Shown here: in pieces, positions 8,338 to 19,626 of the stretch | How the letters are laid out: each line of letters starts with the position of its first letter | Position numbering within the stretch: the stretch's first letter is position 1 | Source of the DNA: Ruminococcus albus 7 = DSM 20455 | GTDB taxonomy: Bacteria; Bacillota; Clostridia; Oscillospirales; Ruminococcaceae | Direction: 5' to 3' | Length of the DNA: 32,000 bases | NCBI RefSeq assembly: GCF_000179635.2 | Contig: NC_014824.1 | Location: 90,001 to 122,000, forward strand | The notes under the pieces: model-generated | The model's input: only the letters and a program-made list of their open reading frames with translations | Told to the model about the DNA's origin: nothing | The model's database searches: none | Made by a program: the position numbers and the translations under genes

Positions 8338-9507
8338 ATGCTGAACAGAATAGCACAAAAAGCGCTGCTTCGTCTTGCAGAGCAGTTCCCGATAGTAGGA
8401 ATCACAGGTCCAAGACAGAGTGGCAAATCTACGCTTACAAAGATCACCTTCCCCGACAAAAAGTATGTAACTTTTGATGATAAAAATATGCGTGAACTTG
8501 CAAAATCAAACCCCGCCGACTTTATTATGGCATTTCCAAATGGTGCCGTTATTGACGAAGCTCAAAAGGTGCCTGAGATATTTGATGCGCTTAAGCTTCA
8601 TGTTGACAGCGCTCCTTTCACACCGGGAAAATTCATTCTCACCGGTTCAAGCCAGTTCAGGCTTAGAAAGAATATGTCCGACAGCCTTGCAGGAAGGGCT
8701 GCTTTTCTGAAACTGCTCCCTTTTTCCATTAAAGAGCTTAAAGATGCTGACCTTCTGCCAAAGAACGCTTACGACCTTATTTTCGTAGGACAGTATCCTC
8801 CGCTTTTTGACAGTGAAAAGCATTATATTGCAGAAGACTGGTTTGAGAGCTATATCGACACTTATCTTGATCTAGATGTTAAAGACCAGATCAATGAGAG
8901 CAATCTGTCAACATTCAGAAAGTTCATTCAGATATGTGCTATATACAGCGGTCAGCTTCTTTCAATGGACAGCATAGCTAAGCAGATAGGTATTTCCCAA
9001 CCCACAGTAAAAAGCTGGCTGTCTATTCTTGAAAACTCATATATCATTCATTTGCTGGAGCCTGATACGAACAATCTTGGGCGTTCGATAGTAAAGACAC
9101 CAAAGCTGTATTTCGTCGATTCGGGACTGCTGTGTCATTTGTTAAGGTTGGAGAGCAAAGAAGATCTGCTTCTGAGCAAGTACAAGGGTGCTGTTGTTGA
9201 GACCTGTGCAGTAGCAGAGATGCTGAAAAACAGAATGAATCAGGCAAAAAAGCCGAATCTGACATTTTACAGAGACAGCAACGGTTTTGAGGTAGACACC
9301 ATAGCCGACTGGAAACACACATTTGCAGTAGAGATAAAAAGCTCAAGCGATGCGGAAGCAAAGCTGTCTGCAAACACTAAAAAGTATCTTACACTGCGAA
9401 ATGACGACAATGCCCATAATGCAGTATTCTATCTCGGTGATATCAGCATGACGATCAATGATACAATGTATGTCAGCTGGAAGGATTGGGGAGATCACCT
9501 TAATTAA
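8338..9507 (+). CDS. AAA+ ATPase with DUF4143 C-terminal domain (AAA_14/DUF4143 family)
   Basis: 389-aa ORF with SD gaggagg. Walker A GPRQSGKST and Walker B-like AVIDEAQ. The overall pattern is typical of the ATP-binding protein/DUF4143 family (from memory). Confidence 0.85.
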   Translation: MLNRIAQKALLRLAEQFPIVGITGPRQSGKSTLTKITFPDKKYVTFDDKNMRELAKSNPADFIMAFPNGAVIDEAQKVPEIFDALKLHVDSAPFTPGKFILTGSSQFRLRKNMSDSLAGRAAFLKLLPFSIKELKDADLLPKNAYDLIFVGQYPPLFDSEKHYIAEDWFESYIDTYLDLDVKDQINESNLSTFRKFIQICAIYSGQLLSMDSIAKQIGISQPTVKSWLSILENSYIIHLLEPDTNNLGRSIVKTPKLYFVDSGLLCHLLRLESKEDLLLSKYKGAVVETCAVAEMLKNRMNQAKKPNLTFYRDSNGFEVDTIADWKHTFAVEIKSSSDAEAKLSANTKKYLTLRNDDNAHNAVFYLGDISMTINDTMYVSWKDWGDHLN

Positions 9508-9638
9508 TCTGATCGAAATTTATTAAGGTTTAGATCCAACTCTACTCCATGTTATCAAGTAATAGAGCTGTTTTTATTATAGAAGGAATTTTTACGTGAT
9601 ATAAGCACTCTATAATAAAAAATATACCTACGGTTTAC

Positions 9639-9667
9639 TTGATTTTTTCTTGTAGATATGATATAAT
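9639..9667 (+). promoter_or_regulatory. Promoter of tRNA module 1
   Basis: TTGATT, 17-nt spacer, TGaTATAAT (extended -10). Confidence 0.65.
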
Positions 9668-9699
9668 GACCACAACATCAAAGAAAGGAGAAAACCGAG

Positions 9700-9828
9700 A
9701 TGAATAAGTTCACTGTTTCATATCTGTATAGCGAATCATTATTGAGCCTCGTCCTCGAATCGGAAGAGACTTCTTTTGTGCTGCGTACAGATAAAGTGGA
9801 TGAACATTTCGGGATTTCTTGTTTCTAA
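9700..9828 (+). CDS. Mini-ORF 1 (42 aa), candidate leader peptide: MNKFTVSYLYSESLLSLVLESEETSFVLRTDKVDEHFGISCF
   Basis: SD aaaggag lies 8 nt upstream of the ATG. The ORF lies between a consensus promoter and an intrinsic terminator. Codons 7-23 are almost exclusively Ser/Tyr/Leu/Glu. Confidence 0.6.
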   Translation: MNKFTVSYLYSESLLSLVLESEETSFVLRTDKVDEHFGISCF

Positions 9829-9851
9829 GTATTATTGATCCTTGTAAGTGA

Positions 9852-9886
9852 AACACCGTCTGTTTGCAGCAGGCGGTGTTTTTGTT
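9852..9886 (+). terminator. Intrinsic terminator / attenuator 1
   Basis: aacaccgtctg (9852-9862) pairs with caggcggtgtt (9870-9880). Loop tttgcag, followed by tttgtt. Confidence 0.75.
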
Positions 9887-9888
9887 AT

Positions 9889-9983
9889 GCCCATGTGTAT
9901 GAACGTTATCACCATAGTTGATAACTGGCATACATTTATGTTTTAGAAACAGGCTTTTTGGGGTTCGAGTCTCCCCACGGGTA
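9889..9983 (+). other. tRNA-like element (95 nt) with a canonical T-arm and acceptor end but no canonical anticodon arm; possibly a degenerate class-II tRNA
   Basis: T-arm tgggg-TTCGAGT-ctccc. Acceptor gcccatg/cacgggt has one A-C mismatch. Possible D-stem tatg/cata. I could not fold a 5-bp stem with a 7-nt anticodon loop. Confidence 0.3.
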
Positions 9984-9991
9984 TTATTTTT

Positions 9992-10066
9992 GCGGGATTG
10001 GCGGAACAGGCATACGCGACGGTCTCAAATACCGTTTTATTCAGGGTTCGACTCCCTGATTCCGCA
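9992..10066 (+). tRNA. tRNA with anticodon CAA (Leu) but a short (~6 nt) variable region
   Basis: Acceptor GCGGGAT/ATTCCGC plus A73. Leu-type D-arm TGGCGGAACAGGCATACGC. Anticodon stem ACGGT/ACCGT with loop CTCAAAT. T-arm CAGGG-TTCGACT-CCCTG. Total 75 nt. Confidence 0.7.
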
Positions 10067-10073
10067 TTTATAT

Positions 10074-10146
10074 GCTCTCGTAGACCAACGGCAGAGTGAA
10101 CGGACTTAAACCCCGTGTAGTGTGAGTTCGAATCTCACCGGGAGCA
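10074..10146 (+). tRNA. tRNA with anticodon UAA (Leu), class-I length, weak D-stem
   Basis: Acceptor GCTCTCG/CGGGAGC plus A73. Anticodon stem ACGGA/CCCGT with an A31-C39 mismatch, loop CTTAAAC. T-arm GTGAG-TTCGAAT-CTCAC. Only 2-3 bp of D-stem could be drawn. Confidence 0.55.
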
Positions 10147-10181
10147 TCAGGATCAATATACTTAGAAAGGAGATGTTTTCA

Positions 10182-10406
10182 ATGCCGGTGATAGACGTCA
10201 AAGCAACAGGAGCGAATATTAAAGCTATAATGAAAATGAAGGGCTTCAAGATCGCTGATGTTCAGGCAAGGTGCGGTTTCAATACTCCGCAGGCTATTTT
10301 CAAGTGGCTGCGTGGAGACGCTGTGCCAACTATAGATAATATGATAATCATAGCCGATATGTTCGGCGTGACTATCGATCAGATAGTTATAATCAAGAAG
10401 ATCTGA
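10182..10406 (+). CDS. Small XRE-family helix-turn-helix protein (74 aa), embedded between tRNA genes
   Basis: SD aaaggag, then ATG 10182. Sequence MPVIDVKATGANIKAIMKMKGFKIADVQARCGFNTPQAIFKWLRGDAVPTIDNMIIIADMFGVTIDQI. Roughly half of its residues match the protein at 11429-11659 by eye. Confidence 0.8.
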   Translation: MPVIDVKATGANIKAIMKMKGFKIADVQARCGFNTPQAIFKWLRGDAVPTIDNMIIIADMFGVTIDQIVIIKKI

Positions 10407-10430
10407 CTGTTATTGCGGTAACAGTCATAA

Positions 10431-10502
10431 GGCTGCATCGTCTAATGGTCAGGACACAAGGTTTTCAACCTTGAAACGTGGGTTCAACTCCCACTGCGGT
10501 CA
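10431..10502 (+). tRNA. tRNA-Glu (UUC)
   Basis: Acceptor GGCTGCA/TGCGGTC. D-arm GTCTAATGGTCAGGAC. Anticodon stem CAAGG/CCTTG with loop TTTTCAA. T-arm GTGGG-TTCAACT-CCCAC. Confidence 0.8.
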
Positions 10503-10567
10503 TTAATTCATCCGTATATGACATCAGCTATATTATAAGTATTCAAAAAAAATATTTCCATCCTTAA

Positions 10568-10596
10568 TTGACTTTTCGGGGATTTTCTTATATAAT
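10568..10596 (+). promoter_or_regulatory. Promoter of the gene at 10648-11094
   Basis: TTGACT, 17-nt spacer, TATAAT. Confidence 0.55.
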
Positions 10597-10647
10597 TAAA
10601 TAAGAATATTGTATTACTTATTTGAGATAATGAAAGGATGTTTTCTT

Positions 10648-11094
10648 ATGTCCATAGATAAAAGAACCGAAATGATCCTAAAAAAAGAGTCATTGACTAT
10701 ATTCAATCAGTTTTGTTCAAAACTGCCATCGGAGTCTTTAGGTCTGTTAATGATGTATCTGCAAAAGTTCAATGACGATAATCCTGATAACGGAACCATT
10801 GTTTTTACTAAAAAAGAATATGAAAAGAAGCTGGGAAATGAAGAAATATCAATCGATGAAATTCAGGACGGCATTCCAGATTTACTAGGTCCGGTAAGAT
10901 TTAAAGGCGATATTCAAATAATGTTTTCTATGTTCATAAGCATTAATATCAGGAAAATAAGCAATGAATATTCAATATTTATGACCTGCAGTGATATTGC
11001 AAAGGATTATATCTTTACCGATCCAAATGTTGCAAAGTATAATTTTATAGACGAGATAAAGAGAAGAATAGACGAGTTAACAAGTATAATGTAG
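10648..11094 (+). CDS. Hypothetical protein (148 aa); only a vague resemblance to winged-helix replication-initiator N-terminal domains
   Basis: SD aaagga, then ATG 10648 (MSIDKRTEMILKKESLTIFNQF...). No motif I can name with confidence. Confidence 0.55.
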   Translation: MSIDKRTEMILKKESLTIFNQFCSKLPSESLGLLMMYLQKFNDDNPDNGTIVFTKKEYEKKLGNEEISIDEIQDGIPDLLGPVRFKGDIQIMFSMFISINIRKISNEYSIFMTCSDIAKDYIFTDPNVAKYNFIDEIKRRIDELTSIM

Positions 11095-11107
11095 CTTACA
11101 AAGCTAC

Positions 11108-11136
11108 TTGACAATTCTCTTTATGAGTGTTATAAT
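11108..11136 (+). promoter_or_regulatory. Promoter of tRNA module 2
   Basis: TTGACA, 17-nt spacer, TGtTATAAT (consensus, extended -10). Confidence 0.7.
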
Positions 11137-11196
11137 CAGTTACAACAAGAGGGGAGCAACGATCTCCCGAAATTATATTACGAAAGGGTGAAAACA

Positions 11197-11334
11197 ATGA
11201 ATTCTATCATGAACAATACTGTTGTCAGATCATATGATGATTACCAGTGCTTCTTTAGCTTTAGTTTTGATTGGCAAGACGAAGGCTTATTTGTGCTGCA
11301 TACGAACACCGGTAATTGTTCAGTTCAAAGATAG
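11197..11334 (+). CDS. Mini-ORF 2 (45 aa), candidate leader peptide: MNSIMNNTVVRSYDDYQCFFSFSFDWQDEGLFVLHTNTGNCSVQR
   Basis: SD aaagggtg. The ORF lies between a consensus promoter and an intrinsic terminator. Codons 13-28 read YDDYQCFFSFSFDWQD. Confidence 0.6.
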   Translation: MNSIMNNTVVRSYDDYQCFFSFSFDWQDEGLFVLHTNTGNCSVQR

Positions 11335-11366
11335 AGTTTATTGACCATCTTCTGAGAGAATATGAC

Positions 11367-11407
11367 CGCCTGTATGTAGTGCAAACTCATACAGGCGATT
11401 TTTTATT
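11367..11407 (+). terminator. Intrinsic terminator / attenuator 2
   Basis: Perfect 10-bp stem cgcctgtatg / catacaggcg with an 11-nt loop, followed by attttttatt. Confidence 0.8.
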
Positions 11408-11428
11408 CTATCGGAAGGTGGTATTATT

Positions 11429-11659
11429 ATGACTGAAGAGATGCCTGTCATAAATATGACAGCGACAGGTTCCAATATAAAGACTCTTATAAAAGCAAAA
11501 GGTTTTAAAGTGACAGAGCTTCAGAACATTCTGGTGTTCAACACACCTCAGTCCATATTCAAATGGATGAGAGGGGAGTCCATACCCTCTATCGACAATC
11601 TGGTGATTCTGGCACATATACTGAATGTCACCATTGATGAGATAATAATCCTTAACTAA
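11429..11659 (+). CDS. Small XRE-family helix-turn-helix protein (76 aa), paralog of 10182-10406
   Basis: SD aaggtgg. Sequence MTEEMPVINMTATGSNIKTLIKAKGFKVTELQNILVFNTPQSIFKWMRGESIPSIDNLVILAHILNVTIDEI. Confidence 0.8.
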   Translation: MTEEMPVINMTATGSNIKTLIKAKGFKVTELQNILVFNTPQSIFKWMRGESIPSIDNLVILAHILNVTIDEIIILN

Positions 11660-11684
11660 TACGTCCTGTTCATTCAGGACACAC

Positions 11685-11758
11685 GGCTCCGTAGTTTAAC
11701 CGGCTAAAACACCGGCCTGTCACGTCGGAGAGCGCGGGTTCAAGTCCCGCCGGAGTCG
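11685..11758 (+). tRNA. tRNA-Asp (GUC)
   Basis: Acceptor GGCTCCG/CGGAGTC plus G73. Anticodon stem CCGGC/GTCGG with loop CTGTCAC. T-arm GCGGG-TTCAAGT-CCCGC. Confidence 0.85.
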
Positions 11759-11764
11759 TCATAA

Positions 11765-11835
11765 TTCCGTTTCGTCTAGTGGTAGGACATCGGTTTCTGA
11801 CACCGAAAACGGGAGTTCAAATCTCTCAGCGGAAA
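11765..11835 (+). tRNA. tRNA-Gln (CUG)
   Basis: Acceptor TTCCGTT/AGCGGAA (U1-A72). Anticodon stem TCGGT/ACCGA with loop TTCTGAC. T-arm GGGAG-TTCAAAT-CTCTC. Confidence 0.8.
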
Positions 11836-11841
11836 TAATTT

Positions 11842-11912
11842 GACTGTGTAGCCAAGTGGAAAGGCTGTCGGCTGCAACCCGACGAGCGTAGGTTCGATCC
11901 CTATCACAGTCT
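11842..11912 (+). tRNA. tRNA-Cys (GCA)
   Basis: Acceptor GACTGTG/CACAGTC plus U73. Anticodon stem GTCGG/CCGAC with loop CTGCAAC. T-arm GTAGG-TTCGATC-CCTAT. Confidence 0.85.
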
Positions 11913-11922
11913 TTAATCACAT

Positions 11923-11995
11923 GCCTCTGTAGCTCAGTTGGTAGAGCGTATGCCTGAAGAGCATAGCGTCGCAAGTTCGATTCTTGCCGGAGGCA
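11923..11995 (+). tRNA. tRNA-Phe (GAA)
   Basis: Acceptor GCCTCTG/CGGAGGC. D-arm TAGCTCAGTTGGTAGAGC. Anticodon stem TATGC/GCATA with loop CTGAAGA. T-arm GCAAG-TTCGATT-CTTGC. Confidence 0.9.
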
Positions 11996-12017
11996 CTTGT
12001 AAAAGTACAAATGTTTT

Positions 12018-12046
12018 TTGAATATCACAAATGTTATCTGTACTAA
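12018..12046 (+). promoter_or_regulatory. Possible internal promoter between tRNA-Phe and tRNA-Gln(UUG)
   Basis: TTGAAT, 17-nt spacer, TACTAA. A weak hairpin ttgta-aaag-tacaa plus a T-run (11997-12019) precedes it. Confidence 0.3.
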
Positions 12047-12048
12047 AT

Positions 12049-12120
12049 TTCCGTTTCGTCTAACAGGCAGGACAACAGACTTTGACTCTGTCAATGGGAG
12101 TTCGATCCTCTCAACGGAAG
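12049..12120 (+). tRNA. tRNA-Gln (UUG)
   Basis: Acceptor TTCCGTT/AACGGAA plus G73. Anticodon stem ACAGA/TCTGT with loop CTTTGAC. T-arm GGGAG-TTCGATC-CTCTC. Confidence 0.85.
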
Positions 12121-12127
12121 CTAATAA

Positions 12128-12204
12128 GTCTCTATTACAAATTATGTATTGAAATTCTATCGGGTATCATCTTTAGAATTCAAGGAGTAGTTTGTAATAG
12201 AGAT
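12128..12204. repeat. 77-nt bipartite hairpin in the spacer between tRNA-Gln(UUG) and tRNA-Trp
   Basis: Outer arms gtctctattacaaa (12128-12141) / tttgtaatagagat (12191-12204). Inner arms aattcta / tagaatt. Confidence 0.6.
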
Positions 12205-12213
12205 GATAGAAAT

Positions 12214-12285
12214 AGGAGAATAGTTCAATGGCTAGAATGACGGTCTCCAAAACCGTAGATCTCAGTTCGACTCTGAGTTCTCCTG
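12214..12285 (+). tRNA. tRNA-Trp (CCA)
   Basis: Acceptor AGGAGAA/TTCTCCT plus G73. Anticodon stem ACGGT/ACCGT with loop CTCCAAA. T-arm CTCAG-TTCGACT-CTGAG. Confidence 0.85.
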
Positions 12286-12302
12286 TCTATACTACAGGTT
12301 TA

Positions 12303-12331
12303 TTGAAATCTGTACTAAGTTATGTTATAAT
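12303..12331 (+). promoter_or_regulatory. Promoter of tRNA module 3
   Basis: TTGAAA, 17-nt spacer, TGtTATAAT (extended -10). Confidence 0.7.
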
Positions 12332-12363
12332 GTCATTAAAGAAATCAAGAAAGGAAGTTCATT

Positions 12364-12456
12364 ATGAAAAACACAGTATTTGCATTCTCATATTCATATA
12401 GTTATTCAAGCGTTGTTCAGAAGAATAAGGCTCGTTTGGCTATGCGTGAATGTTGA
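12364..12456 (+). CDS. Mini-ORF 3 (30 aa), candidate leader peptide: MKNTVFAFSYSYSYSSVVQKNKARLAMREC
   Basis: SD aaaggaag lies 7 nt upstream of the ATG. The ORF lies between a consensus promoter and an intrinsic terminator. Codons 9-16 read SYSYSYSS (tca tat tca tat agt tat tca agc). Confidence 0.6.
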   Translation: MKNTVFAFSYSYSYSSVVQKNKARLAMREC

Positions 12457-12482
12457 TACTGCTTGATGATAAGCTTCAGCAT

Positions 12483-12520
12483 ATACCGTTTGGCTTTCGG
12501 GTCAGGCGGTATTTTTATTT
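12483..12520 (+). terminator. Intrinsic terminator / attenuator 3
   Basis: ataccgtttggc pairs with gtcaggcggtat (12 bp including G-U pairs). Loop tttcgg, followed by ttttatttgtt. Confidence 0.75.
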
Positions 12521-12527
12521 GTTATTC

Positions 12528-12613
12528 GGGAGAGTCACCCAGCGGCGAGGGCAGCGGTCCGTAAAACCGTGACATTAGAAACATCGAAGGTTCGAGTCCT
12601 TCCTCTCCCACCA
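12528..12613 (+). tRNA. tRNA-Tyr (GUA), class II, CCA encoded, C at position 33
   Basis: Acceptor GGGAGAG/CTCTCCC, then A and CCA. Anticodon stem GCGGT/ACCGT with loop CCGTAAA. Long variable arm. T-arm GAAGG-TTCGAGT-CCTTC. Confidence 0.8.
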
Positions 12614-12617
12614 ATAT

Positions 12618-12703
12618 GAGCAGGTACAGAGAATCGGCAAACTCGGCGGTCTGTAAAACCGTTGCTTTATGCGTAGTGGGGTCGGCACCCACCCTGCCCA
12701 CCA
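12618..12703 (+). tRNA. Second tRNA-Tyr (GUA), divergent (A2-C71 mismatch, non-canonical T-loop), CCA encoded
   Basis: Acceptor GAGCAGG/CCTGCCC, then A and CCA. Anticodon loop CTGTAAA. T-arm GTGGG-GTCGGCA-CCCAC lacks the TTCRA signature. Confidence 0.6.
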
Positions 12704-12706
12704 TAT

Positions 12707-12798
12707 GTTGGCATAACCCTAACTGGTAAGGGATCGTCTTGGAAAGGCGAGAGTAATCGGAGTTTTCCGATGTTTCGGTTCGAATCCGAATGCCGACG
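12707..12798 (+). tRNA. tRNA-Ser (GGA)
   Basis: Acceptor GTTGGCA/TGCCGAC plus G73. Anticodon stem TCGTC/GGCGA with loop TTGGAAA. Long variable arm atcgga-gttt-tccgat. T-arm TTCGG-TTCGAAT-CCGAA. Confidence 0.85.
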
Positions 12799-12804
12799 TT
12801 ATGC

Positions 12805-12890
12805 GCTGTGTTAGTGTAATTGGTAACACACTGCTCCCGAAAAGCAGCGTCCTTTTGGACTTACAGGTTCGAGTCCTGTACACAGCGCCA
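12805..12890 (+). tRNA. tRNA-Ser (CGA), CCA encoded
   Basis: Acceptor GCTGTGT/ACACAGC, then G and CCA. Anticodon stem CTGCT/AGCAG with loop CCCGAAA. Variable arm gtcc-tttt-ggac. T-arm ACAGG-TTCGAGT-CCTGT. Confidence 0.8.
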
Positions 12891-12893
12891 TAT

Positions 12894-12988
12894 GGTCACA
12901 TAAGCCTAATTGGTAAGGCAGCGGTTTGCTAAACCGTGAGTAATCGGGTTATTCTGATGTCCGAGTTCAAATCTCGGTGTGGCCGCCA
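12894..12988 (+). tRNA. tRNA-Ser (GCU), CCA encoded
   Basis: Acceptor GGTCACA/TGTGGCC, then G and CCA. Anticodon stem GCGGT/ACCGT with loop TTGCTAA. Long variable arm. T-arm CCGAG-TTCAAAT-CTCGG. Confidence 0.85.
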
Positions 12989-12991
12989 TCT

Positions 12992-13078
12992 GCCGTGTAT
13001 GCAGGCTGGCTCTGCAAACTGTCTTGAAAACAGTATACCGTAAAAAACGGTACGTGGGTTCGATTCCCTCACGCGGCG
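12992..13078 (+). tRNA. tRNA-Ser (UGA)
   Basis: Acceptor GCCGTGT/ACGCGGC plus G73. Anticodon stem ACTGT/ACAGT with loop CTTGAAA. Variable arm taccg-taaaaaa-cggta. T-arm GTGGG-TTCGATT-CCCTC has one mismatch. Confidence 0.8.
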
Positions 13079-13123
13079 CTATAATAAACTATATTCATTA
13101 GAATGTGATTTTAGCAAAAAGAA

Positions 13124-13560
13124 AGGGGGCTACCACGCAGTAGCCCCACGATCTTTGAGCCGAAGCTCAATTGTCCATTGCCTTATACCGTCTCGCCTTA
13201 CGGTATTGCCCAAATTATAGTATATCACTTCGGGCGATTGTTGTCAAGTGTTTTGCTTTAAGAAAGATAATATTTTCTGTTTTGGGGTATATTACAATCA
13301 AAGGGATACCAATGACCTTTATCCTCTTTCAGCAAGAAGACTCCCACCTCTTAGGTGGGAGATGAATTGCGTTTCTTACTCACTGGACTTTTCACTATGC
13401 TCATAGCATAAAATATTCAGTCGAATAAAATGTAGAGGCTAAAATACAGTTGATTTGGATAATAAAGCATATTCTTGCTTTACAAGAGGAGCGATTTTTT
13501 TAACAGGGCGAGAACACACGCTACTTTAGCTGTGGGATGAAGCCCTGTTTTTTATTTTTT
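13124..13560 (+). other. Hairpin-rich non-coding stretch containing orphan IS200/IS605-type end hairpins
   Basis: Hairpins: gggggctac/gtagcccc (13124-13147), ataccgt/acggtat (~13186-13206), ctcccacc-tctta-ggtgggag (13341-13361) and aacagggc...gccctgtt plus a T-run (13502-13560). The last encloses a degenerate cacgct-actt-tagc-tgtg hairpin. Confidence 0.4.
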
Positions 13561-13678
13561 ATAAATTTTCTTGTATAATAATATTGTAGATAATAATTAA
13601 TAACTGGAGGTCAGACAGATCAAATAATACTACTAATATAACACTATGGAACATAAAGCCATAAAAGGAGTGAACACT

Positions 13679-14797
13679 ATGGCAAACAAAGCATTTAAAT
13701 TCAGAATATACCCAAATAACGAGCAAAAGGTTTTGTTTGCCAAAACCTTCGGCTGTGTGAGATTGGTATATAACTATTGGTTATACAAAAAGATCAAGCA
13801 GTATAAAGAATATGAGACAACTTTAAATTACAATGCTTGTGCCAAAGAAATGGCTGAACTTAAGAAAATGGAGAAATACTCATTCTTACGGGAAGTGGAC
13901 AGCGTATCATTGCAGCAGTCGCTTCGACACCTGGATACAGCGTTTCAGAACTTCTATAAACAGCCTAAAACAGGATTTCCCAGGTTCAAATCAAAAAAAT
14001 GTAAAAAGAACAGCTATTCTACCGTTTGTATCAATGGTAACATAGCCATATCCAATGGATACTTGAAATTACCTAAAGTCGGACAAGTCAAAGTAAAACA
14101 GCACAGGAACATTCCTAATGAATATGTTCTCAAGTCTGTGACAGTAAGTCAGACTCCAAGCGGAAAATACTATGCAAGTATTCTGTATGAGTACGAAAAC
14201 CAAGTACAGGAACAGGAACTGCATGACTTCTTAGGGCTTGACTTTTCGATGCACGAGCTGTACAAAGACAGCAACGGCAATGAACCGGCTTACCCCGGAT
14301 ACTACAGAAGAGCTGAAAAAAAGCTAAAAAGAGAACAAAAAAAACTTTCTCTTATGCAGAAAGGCTCTAAAAACCGTGATAAACAACGTATCAAGGTTGC
14401 TAAAATGCATGAGAAAGTTGCAAATCAACGAAAGGACTTTCTACATAAACAGTCAAGACAGATAGCCAATGCCTATGATTGTGTATGTATAGAAGATCTA
14501 AACATGCAAGCAATGTCTCAGGCACTTAAATTCGGCAAGTCGGTTTCAGATAACGGCTGGGGAATGTTTGTAACATTCCTGAAGTACAAACTGGAAGAGC
14601 AAGGCAAAAGGCTTGTAAAGATAGATAAATTCTTTGCGAGCAGTCAGACTTGTTCGTGCTGTGGATACATCAATAAGGAAACAAAGAACCTTGCTATAAG
14701 AGCATGGGACTGTCCCGAATGCGGAACTCACCATAACAGAGATGTAAATGCTGCAATAAATATAAGAAATGAAGGTATGCGTATAGCATTAGCGTAG
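13679..14797 (+). CDS. tnpB: TnpB RNA-guided endonuclease (IS200/IS605 OrfB family), apparently intact
   Basis: SD aaaggag, then ATG 13679 (MANKAFKFRIYPNNEQ...). RuvC residues are present: LGLDFS (D), CIEDLN (E), HNRDVNAAINI (D). Zinc finger CSCCG...CPECG. Confidence 0.9.
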   Translation: MANKAFKFRIYPNNEQKVLFAKTFGCVRLVYNYWLYKKIKQYKEYETTLNYNACAKEMAELKKMEKYSFLREVDSVSLQQSLRHLDTAFQNFYKQPKTGFPRFKSKKCKKNSYSTVCINGNIAISNGYLKLPKVGQVKVKQHRNIPNEYVLKSVTVSQTPSGKYYASILYEYENQVQEQELHDFLGLDFSMHELYKDSNGNEPAYPGYYRRAEKKLKREQKKLSLMQKGSKNRDKQRIKVAKMHEKVANQRKDFLHKQSRQIANAYDCVCIEDLNMQAMSQALKFGKSVSDNGWGMFVTFLKYKLEEQGKRLVKIDKFFASSQTCSCCGYINKETKNLAIRAWDCPECGTHHNRDVNAAINIRNEGMRIALA

Positions 14798-16123: not shown

Positions 16124-17449
16124 ATGCAGATATATACGACTTACAGCGTTAAGATCAAGCATTACAACAACATCTTTAAAGATACCGTTATCGTATACAG
16201 ACATGCTGTAGATTACCTTATCAGCGTTTGTCTGGATCATTGGGATAACATTGTTACATTCAAAGGGGTGAGTAGACTCACATATATTGAAACACTGATC
16301 CATGCTACAAAAGATAATCCCGATCCAATTTATGATTTTGATGCCAAATTCTATAAGATGCCAAGCTATCTGCGCCGTGGTGCAATCAACGAGGCTATAG
16401 GCAAGGTATCATCTTACAAAAGCAATCTCGATAACTGGATCAAAGATCCGGTCGGAAGAGAACCATCGCATCCAAAAGCAGGTTATTCATTCCCGTCTAT
16501 GTATCGTACAGGAATGTACAATCAGACCGGTGATTATACTGCCCAGATCAAAGTCTACATCCGTAATACATGGGACTGGATAACGATAAACCTTAAAAAG
16601 TCTGATATGGATTATATATACAGACATTGCCGCTTACGCAAACAATGCGCTCCAACACTTCAAAAACGAGGCAAGGAGTGGTTTTTGGACTTTCCGTTTG
16701 AGGAAAAGGTCAAACTTGCAGATATATCTGTGTATGAACAGACCATTGTTGCTGTAGATCTTGGTATCAACACTGCCGCTACGGTTTCCGTAATGCGTTC
16801 AGATGGCACTATTCTTGGAAGGCATTTTTGTAAGCTTACCAAAGAAACAGACCATCTGATGCATAGCATTAACCGTATAAAAAAAGCTCAGCAGCATGGT
16901 AACTATAAAACACCAAGGCTTTGGGCAAAAGCCAAAGGCATCAATCACGACATTGCCATAAAAACTGCGAACTGCATCGTAAATATAGCTGTTCTTTATA
17001 ATGCAGATGTTATTGTATTTGAGCATTTAGACAAGAACGGTAAGGTCCGCGGTTCTAAAAAGCAGAAACTCAAGCTGTGGCGCAGTCAGGAAGTTCAGTC
17101 TATTGTAACGAATAAAGCTCACAGACTGGGTATGAGAGTAAGCCATATCTGTGCATGGAATACGTCACGCCTTGCCTACGATGGCAGTGGTTTTGTACTT
17201 CGTGGTAAATTCGGTGGTTTCAATACCTATGAGCTATGCAAATTTCAAAATGGCAAGTCCTACAACTGTAATCTATCTGCTTCGTATAATATTGGGGCAA
17301 GATATTTCATACGTGAAATATTAAAATCCTTGGATGAGAATTCAAGGTTGCTCATTGAGGCAAAAGTACCTCAATGCAGTAAGAGAAGCACCTGCACGTT
17401 CTCTACCTTAGTTAACCTGAATGCGGAAATTATTGCTCAAACAGCATAA
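16124..17449 (+). CDS. TnpB-related protein (441 aa) with an atypical RuvC-III / zinc-finger region
   Basis: SD ggaggga, then ATG 16124. RuvC-I IVAVDLGIN and RuvC-II DVIVFEHLD are present. The position aligning to RDVNAAINI reads CNLSASYNI (Asn instead of Asp). The CxxC...CxxC cysteines are replaced by LAYDGSG ... CKFQNGKSYNC. Confidence 0.75.
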   Translation: MQIYTTYSVKIKHYNNIFKDTVIVYRHAVDYLISVCLDHWDNIVTFKGVSRLTYIETLIHATKDNPDPIYDFDAKFYKMPSYLRRGAINEAIGKVSSYKSNLDNWIKDPVGREPSHPKAGYSFPSMYRTGMYNQTGDYTAQIKVYIRNTWDWITINLKKSDMDYIYRHCRLRKQCAPTLQKRGKEWFLDFPFEEKVKLADISVYEQTIVAVDLGINTAATVSVMRSDGTILGRHFCKLTKETDHLMHSINRIKKAQQHGNYKTPRLWAKAKGINHDIAIKTANCIVNIAVLYNADVIVFEHLDKNGKVRGSKKQKLKLWRSQEVQSIVTNKAHRLGMRVSHICAWNTSRLAYDGSGFVLRGKFGGFNTYELCKFQNGKSYNCNLSASYNIGARYFIREILKSLDENSRLLIEAKVPQCSKRSTCTFSTLVNLNAEIIAQTA

Positions 17450-19200: not shown

Positions 19201-19626
19201 ATGACGAGAGGATTATTTTATGAGAAAAATATAGTTACAGTTATAATTACTGCATGCTGTCTTACTGCCTGCGGTTCAGTTACAAACCCAGAACATGATA
19301 ATACATCTACCCAGAGTGAAACAACAGCAACGACCACTACAACTACCGAATCATCACGTCATAAGGGCGTAACTAAAATAATTGAGATCTCGGAACCTGA
19401 AGCCAAGACGACTTCCGACGAAGAATGGCATCGTCGTGATACGTACCACTCGACGATCGGGCTCGATACTTACGTCTATGCAGAACCTTCAGAAGATTTC
19501 GAGCAGATAGGTGAACTTAAAATAGGGGATGTAGTTGTGGATATCGGCGATGCAAATGTCGATAATTGGATAGTTATTGAATGGAATGACGGTATTGGTT
19601 TTGTTAATAGAGACTATATATGGTAG
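19201..19626 (+). CDS. Lipoprotein with C-terminal SH3b-like domain
   Basis: Lipobox LTAC|G after a hydrophobic segment, then a Thr-rich linker. C-terminal YVYAEPSEDFEQIGELKIGDVVVDIGDANVDNWIVIEWNDGIGFVNRDYIW. Confidence 0.7.
   Translation: MTRGLFYEKNIVTVIITACCLTACGSVTNPEHDNTSTQSETTATTTTTTESSRHKGVTKIIEISEPEAKTTSDEEWHRRDTYHSTIGLDTYVYAEPSEDFEQIGELKIGDVVVDIGDANVDNWIVIEWNDGIGFVNRDYIW

Follow-up and report, generated by a model that had tools for sequence, protein, structure and literature searches.

Within a stretch of 32,000 nucleotides (nt) from Ruminococcus albus 7 (= DSM 20455; contig NC_014824.1, positions 90,001 to 122,000 of the forward strand, here referred to as the window and numbered from its first letter) lie three co-oriented modules of the same design, i.e. 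a promoter, a short open reading frame (ORF), an intrinsic terminator and a group of tRNA genes. The subject of this analysis is the last of them, module 3, in which the short ORF carries an unbroken run of serine (Ser, S) and tyrosine (Tyr, Y) codons and the genes beyond the terminator specify tRNA-Tyr and tRNA-Ser. We consider it probable, on the basis of the sequence and of modelled RNA folds, that module 3 is a ribosome-mediated attenuator of the trp/his type, whose cargo tRNAs decode the regulatory codons of their own leader. The elements that precede the tRNA genes are the following.

12303-12331, forward strand: promoter with -35 box TTGAAA, a 17-nt spacer and extended -10 box TGtTATAAT (11 of 12 consensus matches).
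12350-12357, forward strand: Shine-Dalgarno sequence aaaggaag, separated from the ATG by 6 nt and invariant in the six-sequence alignment.
12364-12456, forward strand: leader ORF of 30 codons plus stop, with its ATG at 12364; peptide MKNTVFAFSYSYSYSSVVQKNKARLAMREC.
12388-12411, forward strand: regulatory run SYSYSYSS, codons 9-16 (tca tat tca tat agt tat tca agc).
12483-12520, forward strand: intrinsic terminator with a 13-base-pair (bp) stem (12483-12495 with 12500-12512), loop UUUC and T-tract 12513-12520 (-16.2 kcal/mol).

The preliminary description of this DNA, made from the letters alone, had proposed a consensus promoter, the ORF and its codons 9-16, all of which were recovered. The promoter has the sequence of a strong sigma-70-type promoter, in which the extended -10 TG comes on top of the 11 matches, and it is kept in four related loci (L002, L076, L077 and L079; loci are cited by number throughout). 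The reading frame of the leader ORF is unbroken in the six aligned sequences of this module type (M3), and the peptide is identical to the hypothetical protein Rumal_3367, annotated on an R. albus 7 plasmid. As is typical of attenuators, a short ORF with a ribosome-binding site is placed between promoter and regulated genes, and it holds a cluster of regulatory codons, all eight codons of the run being Ser or Tyr. The earlier view that such a run is unlikely to be a product of chance agrees with the numbers: S/Y runs of at least 8 residues are expected 0.007 times in the window, and SYSYSYSS is the sole two-amino-acid run of at least 8 residues in all six frames. A YSYSY run at 19230 was dropped as a candidate, being out of frame with every listed ORF of at least 40 amino acids (aa), including the one at 19201-19626.

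The pairing of the terminator stem is preserved by changes from G-U to G-C or A-U in L076, L077 and L078. The 15 nt between the end of the stem and the first tRNA gene (12528) are taken up by the T-tract and contain no promoter-like site, again the arrangement of an attenuator, and because the terminator ends 15 nt before tRNA-Tyr, the tRNAs of module 3 should be transcribed by read-through only. A small hairpin followed by TTTATT (12282-12298), which overlaps the 3' end of a tRNA-Trp gene just upstream of the -35 box, may be a weak terminator of module 2, so that module 3 could also receive read-through transcription from module 2.

The tRNA genes were called with ARAGORN, at default settings and at the relaxed settings -ps75 and -ps90, and by an Rfam search down to E<=10.

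12528-12613, forward strand: tRNA-Tyr(GUA); ARAGORN default, Rfam 46 bits; C33 in the anticodon loop.
12618-12703, forward strand: tRNA-Tyr(GUA)-like gene; ARAGORN only at -ps90; T-loop GUCGGCA and A2-C71 mismatch.
12706-12799, forward strand: tRNA-Ser(GGA); ARAGORN default and Rfam.
12805-12890, forward strand: tRNA-Ser(CGA); ARAGORN default and Rfam.
12894-12988, forward strand: tRNA-Ser(GCU); ARAGORN default and Rfam.
12992-13079, forward strand: tRNA-Ser(UGA); ARAGORN default; the top Rfam model is tRNA-Sec with 43.6 bits, below its threshold.

The spacers along this block measure 4, 2, 5, 3 and 3 nt, and Rfam concurs with ARAGORN on 4 of the 5 default-called genes. Two tRNA-Tyr and four tRNA-Ser genes had been counted previously; one tRNA-Tyr(GUA) and all four tRNA-Ser stand, whereas the second tRNA-Tyr is a sub-threshold, tRNA-like gene, which is not called by default ARAGORN and has no Rfam match even at E<=10. 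This gene is nevertheless kept in five sequences (the window and four relatives), and its A2-C71 mismatch is confined to the window, the relatives having G2-C71 and a perfect acceptor stem. Its T-loop, GUCGGCA, replaces the canonical UUCGAAU-type loop, and possible readings of the gene are a non-canonical tRNA, a decoy and a pseudogene. The tRNA-Tyr at 12528-12613 has the anticodon loop CCGUAAA, i.e. C33 in place of the U33 that is near-universal in tRNAs; this position varies among the relatives, L076 and L078 having T where the window, L002, L077 and L079 have C. Altogether, 14 default-called tRNAs lie within 3.1 kb of the window, with spacers of 2-6 nt inside the blocks, which falls short of the at least 20 genes required by the published definition of a tRNA array (PMC4758250).

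In the RNA of the module 3 leader, the segments between the regulatory run and the terminator can form alternative helices, built from these regions.

12374-12418, forward strand: region 1, the 5' strand of the anti-antiterminator hairpin in the minimum free energy fold; it holds the S/Y run.
12423-12461, forward strand: region 2, which pairs with region 1; 97% of cells paired in six sequences.
12438-12456, forward strand: antiterminator 5' strand, GGCUAUGCGUGAAUGUUGA, part of region 2 and including the stop codon UGA (12454-12456).
12476-12495, forward strand: region 3, UCAGCAUAUACCGUUUGGCU, the antiterminator 3' strand, which overlaps the terminator 5' arm (12483-12495).

The antiterminator consists of 12438-12456 paired with 12476-12495 and thereby engages the 5' arm of the terminator. 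The predicted helix energies are -29.1 kcal/mol for 1:2, -16.8 kcal/mol for 2:3 and -16.2 kcal/mol for 3:4. Compared with shuffles, the fold of the module 3 leader RNA has a z of -4.87 (the leaders of the sister modules reach -8.09 and -4.90) and the antiterminator 2:3 helix a z of -2.25. As in attenuators, the antiterminator (2:3) and the terminator are mutually exclusive and an anti-antiterminator (1:2) is present besides, with no double covariation in module 3 itself. The preliminary description, which had suggested folding the leader and listing its alternative structures, had seen no clean antiterminator by eye; the 2:3 helix came forward when folding was restricted, i.e. when only the RNA 3' of the stalled ribosome was folded and the RNA was ended before the 3' arm of the terminator, and the competing structure thus obtained is gated by the position of the ribosome. 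With the A-site at codons 8-21 the terminator 5' arm is predicted to be sequestered, with a mean pairing probability of about 0.7, and from codon 22 onward this pairing falls to 0.2-0.4, a profile shared by the six M3 copies, every one of which also has its stop codon within the antiterminator strand. The geometry is that of an attenuator: a stall at the regulatory codons would free region 2 and a ribosome on the stop codon would block it, so that without a stall region 2 is either bound by region 1 or covered by the ribosome at the stop. Folding with pairs allowed across the ribosome and equilibrium folding with a masked ribosome both left the switch unresolved.

A different competitor had been suggested beforehand, namely the 8-mer cgtttggc, whose presence both in the ORF (12433-12440) and in the terminator 5' arm (12487-12494) would give the terminator 3' arm two possible partners. 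Both copies are there, but the proposed role did not hold, the terminator keeping a probability of at least 0.97 at S/Y stalls in equilibrium folds. The copy in the ORF is not conserved in L002, L076, L078 and L079, the relatives reading CGTTCAGC, CGATTGGC and CGAATCGT. The true competitor of the terminator pairs with its 5' arm, in the 2:3 helix, and not with its 3' arm.

Compensatory change is found in the leaders of type 1 and type 2 (represented in the window by the ORFs at 9700-9828 and 11197-11334). The segment coding for 'FVLHT' is the pairing partner of the terminator 5' arm in 52 of the 53 unique leaders, and in 42 distinct sequences the resulting 13-bp antiterminator helix is paired in 89.6% of cells, with both sides changing in 7 of its 13 pairs; at one of them 19 sequences have C-G and 18 have U-A. 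Neither the percentage paired nor the covariation score was equalled by any of 500 shuffles. The peptides of these leaders share the motif [FIL]V[LV][HR]T, the codons of which (GUGCUGCAUAC) form region 2 of the antiterminator, and the conservation of the peptide can be ascribed to the fact that its codons pair and co-vary with the terminator arm.

The correspondence between leader codons and downstream tRNAs could be followed over a large set of relatives. One genome per species was scanned for the helix-turn-helix (HTH) protein that is encoded within most of these operons, which yielded 75 loci; a metagenome peptide scan added four loci of the M3 type, giving a total of 79 Ruminococcus/Oscillospiraceae loci, and a scan of IMG/VR contributed 80 more, with HTH proteins that are 43-56% identical and with tRNAs in 74 of the 80. 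The initial homologue search found the in-operon HTH protein restricted to Ruminococcus and relatives, and in nearly all 75 genome loci the HTH gene is followed by tRNAs within about 30 nt. Frame and SYSYSYSS run are intact in each of the six M3 leaders, with a synonymous change from tca to tcg inside the run, and Tyr and Ser tRNAs are always found downstream. In L078 the run is extended to SSSYSYSYSS (tcg tcc tca tat tca tat agt tat tca agc), and its codons match the four Ser anticodons, all of which are present downstream.

Over the 85 modules of the 79 loci, the cognate fraction of the regulatory segment is 0.42, versus 0.25 with permuted tRNA sets (p<5e-5, the observed value never being reached; 25 cluster representatives). 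Ten amino acids (L, E, H, Y, S, D, Q, C, F and W) are each enriched in the leader when their own tRNA lies downstream, and the match extends to codon and anticodon (TTA/UAA, TTG/CAA, CTG/CAG, CAA/UUG, CAG/CUG, GAA/UUC, GAG/CUC, TCA/UGA and AGY/GCU). Losses go together: the module 2 variants of L002, L077 and L079 have lost tRNA-Asp and have one Asp codon, versus four in the window, and L011 has neither a Cys codon nor tRNA-Cys. Likewise, the leader MRQFTMIYLYSEHYEESFYHESEE precedes tRNAs for Glu, His, Tyr, Glu and Ser, and the leader …YVFFAQQFQFRFFRQWQ precedes tRNAs for Trp, Phe and Gln, the Cys codon and tRNA-Cys both being missing. Among the IMG/VR loci, NKQNKLQKLWSNWNL is followed by tRNAs for Gln, Lys, Asn, Leu, Asn, Leu and Trp, SYEYSYEYSEFMSF by tRNAs for Glu, Phe, Tyr, Glu, Ser and Ser, and ISNRIKSIRSQFCNKNWFNC by tRNAs for Phe, Ile, Lys, Lys, Trp, Gln, Cys, Asn and Arg; the cognate fraction of the best window of the leader is 0.69 there, versus 0.43 with permutation, and 0 of 5,000 permutations reached 0.69. 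At the level of sequence, leader composition co-varies with the identity of the downstream tRNAs over about 160 loci from two lineages.

These arrays also contain tRNAs with an A34 anticodon, namely Leu-AAG (L002, L005, L023, L024, L028, L055, L067 and L072), Ser-AGA (L086-L159) and Phe-AAA (L084 and L085); bacterial A34 anticodons are normally confined to tRNA-Arg(ACG).

The reading of module 3 as an attenuator, which the preliminary description had put forward, is thus supported in silico by the antiterminator, by its gating through the ribosome and by the co-variation of leaders and tRNAs. The mechanism that we propose runs as follows. Transcription would start at the sigma-70 promoter (12303-12331) and a ribosome would load on the 30-codon leader. 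When Tyr and Ser codons are decoded fast, the ribosome would reach the stop codon (12454-12456) inside region 2 and cover that region, and in a leader that is not translated region 2 would stay locked to region 1; in both situations the terminator (12483-12512) would form and transcription would stop 15 nt before tRNA-Tyr. When UAU, UCA or AGY codons are decoded slowly, i.e. when the cognate charged tRNAs are scarce, the ribosome would stall in SYSYSYSS and mask region 1, upon which the freed region 2 (12438-12456) would pair with 12476-12495 and sequester the terminator 5' arm, and RNA polymerase would read on to transcribe tRNA-Tyr, its tRNA-Tyr-like neighbour and the four tRNA-Ser genes. 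The net effect would be a negative feedback on decoding capacity, with one amino-acid group per module, and feedback control of tRNA supply by decoding capacity is the most likely function. On this model, recoding SYSYSYSS to AGAGAGAA is expected to abolish induction.

Several points weigh against this interpretation. We infer leader translation, stalling and read-through, and with them the kinetic decision and the physiological trigger, from sequence and predicted folding, and the ribosome footprint used in the folds (-15 to +14 nt around the A-site) is an assumed one. In the equilibrium fold of the full-length leader the terminator is retained at every position of the ribosome, so that the attenuator model needs a kinetic decision, as in trp; the trp attenuator, too, keeps its terminator at equilibrium and is decided kinetically. 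The six M3 copies are on average about 93% identical and, while the pairs of their helices hold in 95-97% of cells, these helices vary on one side only, show no double changes in the six sequences and are equalled by shuffles. As to the codons, Ser and Tyr discriminate least, almost every leader of the family being well supplied with them; the correlation is weakest for Ser (3.9 versus 3.2 per segment, p = 0.04), and the leader of module 1 has S and Y codons while that module has no Ser or Tyr tRNA. The M3 leader of the window lacks UCC, UCU and UCG codons, which implies that tRNA-Ser(GGA) and tRNA-Ser(CGA) are not sensed directly. Finally, kinship among the leaders inflates the permutation statistics and was removed only in part.

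The architecture has clear precedents. With the enterobacterial leaders trpL, hisL, pheL, leuL, thrL and ilvL, module 3 shares a short, promoter-near and presumably translated ORF with regulatory codons, the 1:2, 2:3, 3:4 arrangement with an intrinsic terminator, and a geometry in which region 2 is freed by a stall but blocked once the ribosome sits at the stop. It differs from them in its cargo, which consists of cognate tRNAs and not of amino-acid biosynthetic enzymes; in that one leader of this family covers 2 to 8 amino acids, matching a multi-tRNA cargo; in that it matches no Rfam leader (E<=10); and in its Gram-positive host (Oscillospiraceae). The pheST operon of E. coli, with its pheM leader, comes closer in that an attenuator with Phe codons controls a translation component for the same amino acid, but the component there is an aminoacyl-tRNA synthetase, whereas here it is the tRNAs, which would feed back directly on the stalled codon. 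T-boxes in Gram-positive bacteria likewise tie terminator read-through to the state of one tRNA species, yet they bind uncharged tRNA without translation, whereas sensing here would proceed via the ribosome, and they control genes for synthetases, for biosynthesis and for transport; the Rfam search gave no T-box here. Ribosomes stalled on an upstream ORF remodel the downstream RNA in ermCL, in the cat leaders and in the topAI upstream ORF (see PMC12121999), the difference being that those stalls stem from a drug plus the nascent peptide and not from the supply of cognate tRNA, and that the cargo consists of resistance or toxin genes. The nearest analogue in function is the trn operon (L-array) of Anabaena sp. 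PCC 7120, a supernumerary, horizontally spread tRNA array that is linked to an RNA ligase gene, features which the modules may share; it is silent until translation is impaired and is co-regulated with rtcB (PMC8421152). Its regulation was attributed to promoter direct repeats and to a repressor that is itself hypothetical, with no mention of leader ORFs, of attenuators or of terminators, and the response is global, not per amino acid (PMC8421152). No account of tRNA genes controlled by a leader peptide turned up in full-text literature searches. The attenuation mechanism is classical, but the regulated genes and the logic of the feedback are new.

If module 3 is an attenuator, the question is what naturally stalls its ribosomes. 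The trigger that may be considered first, with a confidence that stays tentative, is damage to or depletion of tRNA: cleavage or loss of a tRNA would stall ribosomes on its codons and induce replacement tRNAs and, in some genomes, an RNA ligase, the cleavage being envisaged as the work of anticodon nucleases that stem from toxin-antitoxin systems, from competitors or from conflicts with phages. A gene for an Rnl5-type RNA ligase occurs in the type-2 operon of 20 out of 80 sequences (the 79 loci and the window), which are listed here.

Ligase loci, first part: L047 (7252-8298), L008, L009, L020-L022, L025, L027 and L030-L033.
Ligase loci, second part: L036, L038-L043 and L049.

The order in these operons is leader, terminator, HTH gene, 0-5 tRNAs and ligase, and the ligase matches Pfam families PF21189 (OB domain) and PF09414 as well as PDB entry 5cot, an RNA ligase of Naegleria gruberi (E = 2.8e-47). 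The presence of an Rnl5 ligase in the same operon points to a response to tRNA damage, the more so as three of the operons (L021, L047 and L049) have no tRNA at all and consist of the HTH gene and the ligase only. In the same direction point the co-regulation of the inducible Anabaena operon with the ligase gene rtcB (PMC8421152), the non-canonical tRNAs of the array (the C33 tRNA-Tyr, the Tyr-like gene with its odd T-loop and a decayed tRNA-Leu) and the apparently plasmid-borne nature of the array, the leaders of which match annotated genes of an R. albus 7 plasmid, as well as the DarT/Macro and HipA-like genes near the L047 operon. In that locus (L047:8456-12653), genes for HipA_C-like, metallophosphatase, DarT and Macro-domain (DarTG-like) proteins adjoin the leader-HTH-ligase operon, a neighbourhood whose gene content resembles a defence or toxin island. 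Set against these points, the window contains no RNA ligase, no nuclease partner was identified, and a stalled ribosome is blind to the difference between a missing and an uncharged tRNA. It is quite conceivable, all in all, that the tRNA arrays of Oscillospiraceae (a Ruminococcus plasmid and many IMG/VR contigs) are self-sensing modules that give a codon-resolved response to tRNA damage, with Rnl5 in some lineages.

The same insensitivity of the mechanism, which cannot tell charging from abundance, leaves room for amino-acid starvation as the natural signal, with uncharged tRNA causing the stall and the tRNAs merely being co-regulated, and the architecture is indeed that of the trp, his and pheST leaders. 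We nevertheless regard starvation as an unlikely trigger: extra tRNA gives no relief from a shortage of amino acids, none of the modules in the genome and IMG/VR loci contains a biosynthetic or transport gene, and both the matching at the level of anticodons and the ligase cargo suit tRNA supply better.

It is rather improbable, too, that the XRE-type HTH protein is the main regulator, acting as a repressor at the promoter while the leaders only fine-tune expression. Most modules do contain its gene, with about 30 nt between it and the first tRNA, and a repressor has been proposed for the tRNA operon of Anabaena (PMC8421152). However, module 3 has a leader and no HTH gene of its own, and since the HTH gene lies downstream of the terminator it should itself be under the control of the leader.

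That the mini-ORF is there by accident or codes for a small peptide with a function of its own, with a non-regulatory S/Y run and a hairpin that is a constitutive, leaky terminator or a processing signal, can practically be discounted, for, even though the annotation reads hypothetical protein only, S and Y are common in related leaders irrespective of cargo and the module 3 helices lack compensatory changes, a run of this length is hardly expected in the window (0.007 times, as given above), composition follows tRNA identity in two lineages, the peptide motif of the sister families is accounted for by RNA pairing with the terminator arm, and the stop codon falls within the antiterminator strand in 6 of 6 copies.

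The attenuator that we propose for module 3 has its counterparts in the two sister modules upstream.

9639-10502, forward strand: sister module 1, with promoter 9639-9667, leader ORF 9700-9828 (…SYLYSESLLSLVLESEE…) and terminator 9851-9881.
9781-9791, forward strand: region 2 of module 1, CTGCGTACAGA.
Cargo of module 1, forward strand: decayed tRNA-Leu(UAG) at 9911-9982, tRNA-Leu(CAA), tRNA-Leu(UAA), HTH gene 10182-10406 and tRNA-Glu(UUC).
11108-12287, forward strand: sister module 2, with promoter 11108-11136 (12 of 12 matches), leader ORF 11197-11334 (…YDDYQCFFSFSFDWQDE…) and region 2 at 11291-11304.
Remainder of module 2, forward strand: terminator 11367-11397 and HTH gene 11429-11659, followed by tRNA-Asp, tRNA-Gln(CUG), tRNA-Cys, tRNA-Phe, tRNA-Gln(UUG) and tRNA-Trp.

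Leader 1 is rich in Leu and Glu and leader 2 in Asp, Gln, Cys, Phe and Trp, each of which fits the tRNAs of its own module, and the predicted window of permissive ribosome positions closes exactly at the last cognate codon, i.e. E23 in module 1 and D28 in module 2. The leader peptide of module 1 is identical to the hypothetical protein Rumal_3363, also annotated on the plasmid. The decayed tRNA-Leu(UAG) is called by ARAGORN at -ps75 only and has an intact counterpart in L001 and L079; the leader of module 1 retains a ctg codon despite this decay. The two HTH genes (10182-10406 and 11429-11659) are paralogous, of the XRE type, encode 74-76 aa, are 54% identical and lie 3' of the attenuators. 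Between modules 1 and 2 is an ORF of 148 aa (10648-11094) with a promoter of its own (10568-10596, 11 of 12 matches); it has no Pfam or PADLOC match, and L160 has a gene call at the corresponding position.

The array as a whole is flanked by genes for LRR/BspA and DUF285 surface proteins, an AAA_14/DUF4143 ATPase and TnpB. The ATPase gene (8338-9507) immediately precedes the array, and its product matches PDC-S01, a candidate defence family of PADLOC (E = 1.7e-93). TnpB (13646-14797; IS200/IS605-type, with OrfB_IS605 and a Cas12f1-like TNB domain) follows the array at a distance of about 570 nt, a weaker second OrfB-like ORF being found at 16124-17449. A BLAST comparison of 9600-13100 with phage and plasmid collections gave matches to individual tRNAs only, and Rfam on 9500-13300 (E<=10) returned tRNA only, i.e. 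no Trp, His, Leu, Thr or Phe leader and no T-box.

To our knowledge, control of bacterial tRNA genes acts mainly at their promoters, via growth rate and the stringent response. If the attenuator model is true, module 3 and its relatives would add a direct feedback loop on decoding capacity that operates one codon group at a time, and if the arrays do respond to tRNA damage, this would be the first direct feedback of decoding capacity on the transcription of tRNA genes. The relation between leader codons and cargo is a rule that can be read from sequence, in which the former predict the latter; it could serve to annotate tRNA arrays and to forecast the tRNA losses for which a bacterium is prepared. 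The attenuator would also offer a mechanism for the inducible subset of tRNAs in Anabaena, for which no sensor is known. The Rnl5 ligase cargo would link tRNA arrays to RNA repair and to conflicts that involve tRNA-cleaving toxins, and the modules themselves would be compact sensors of the availability of single tRNAs, which could be reused as reporters.

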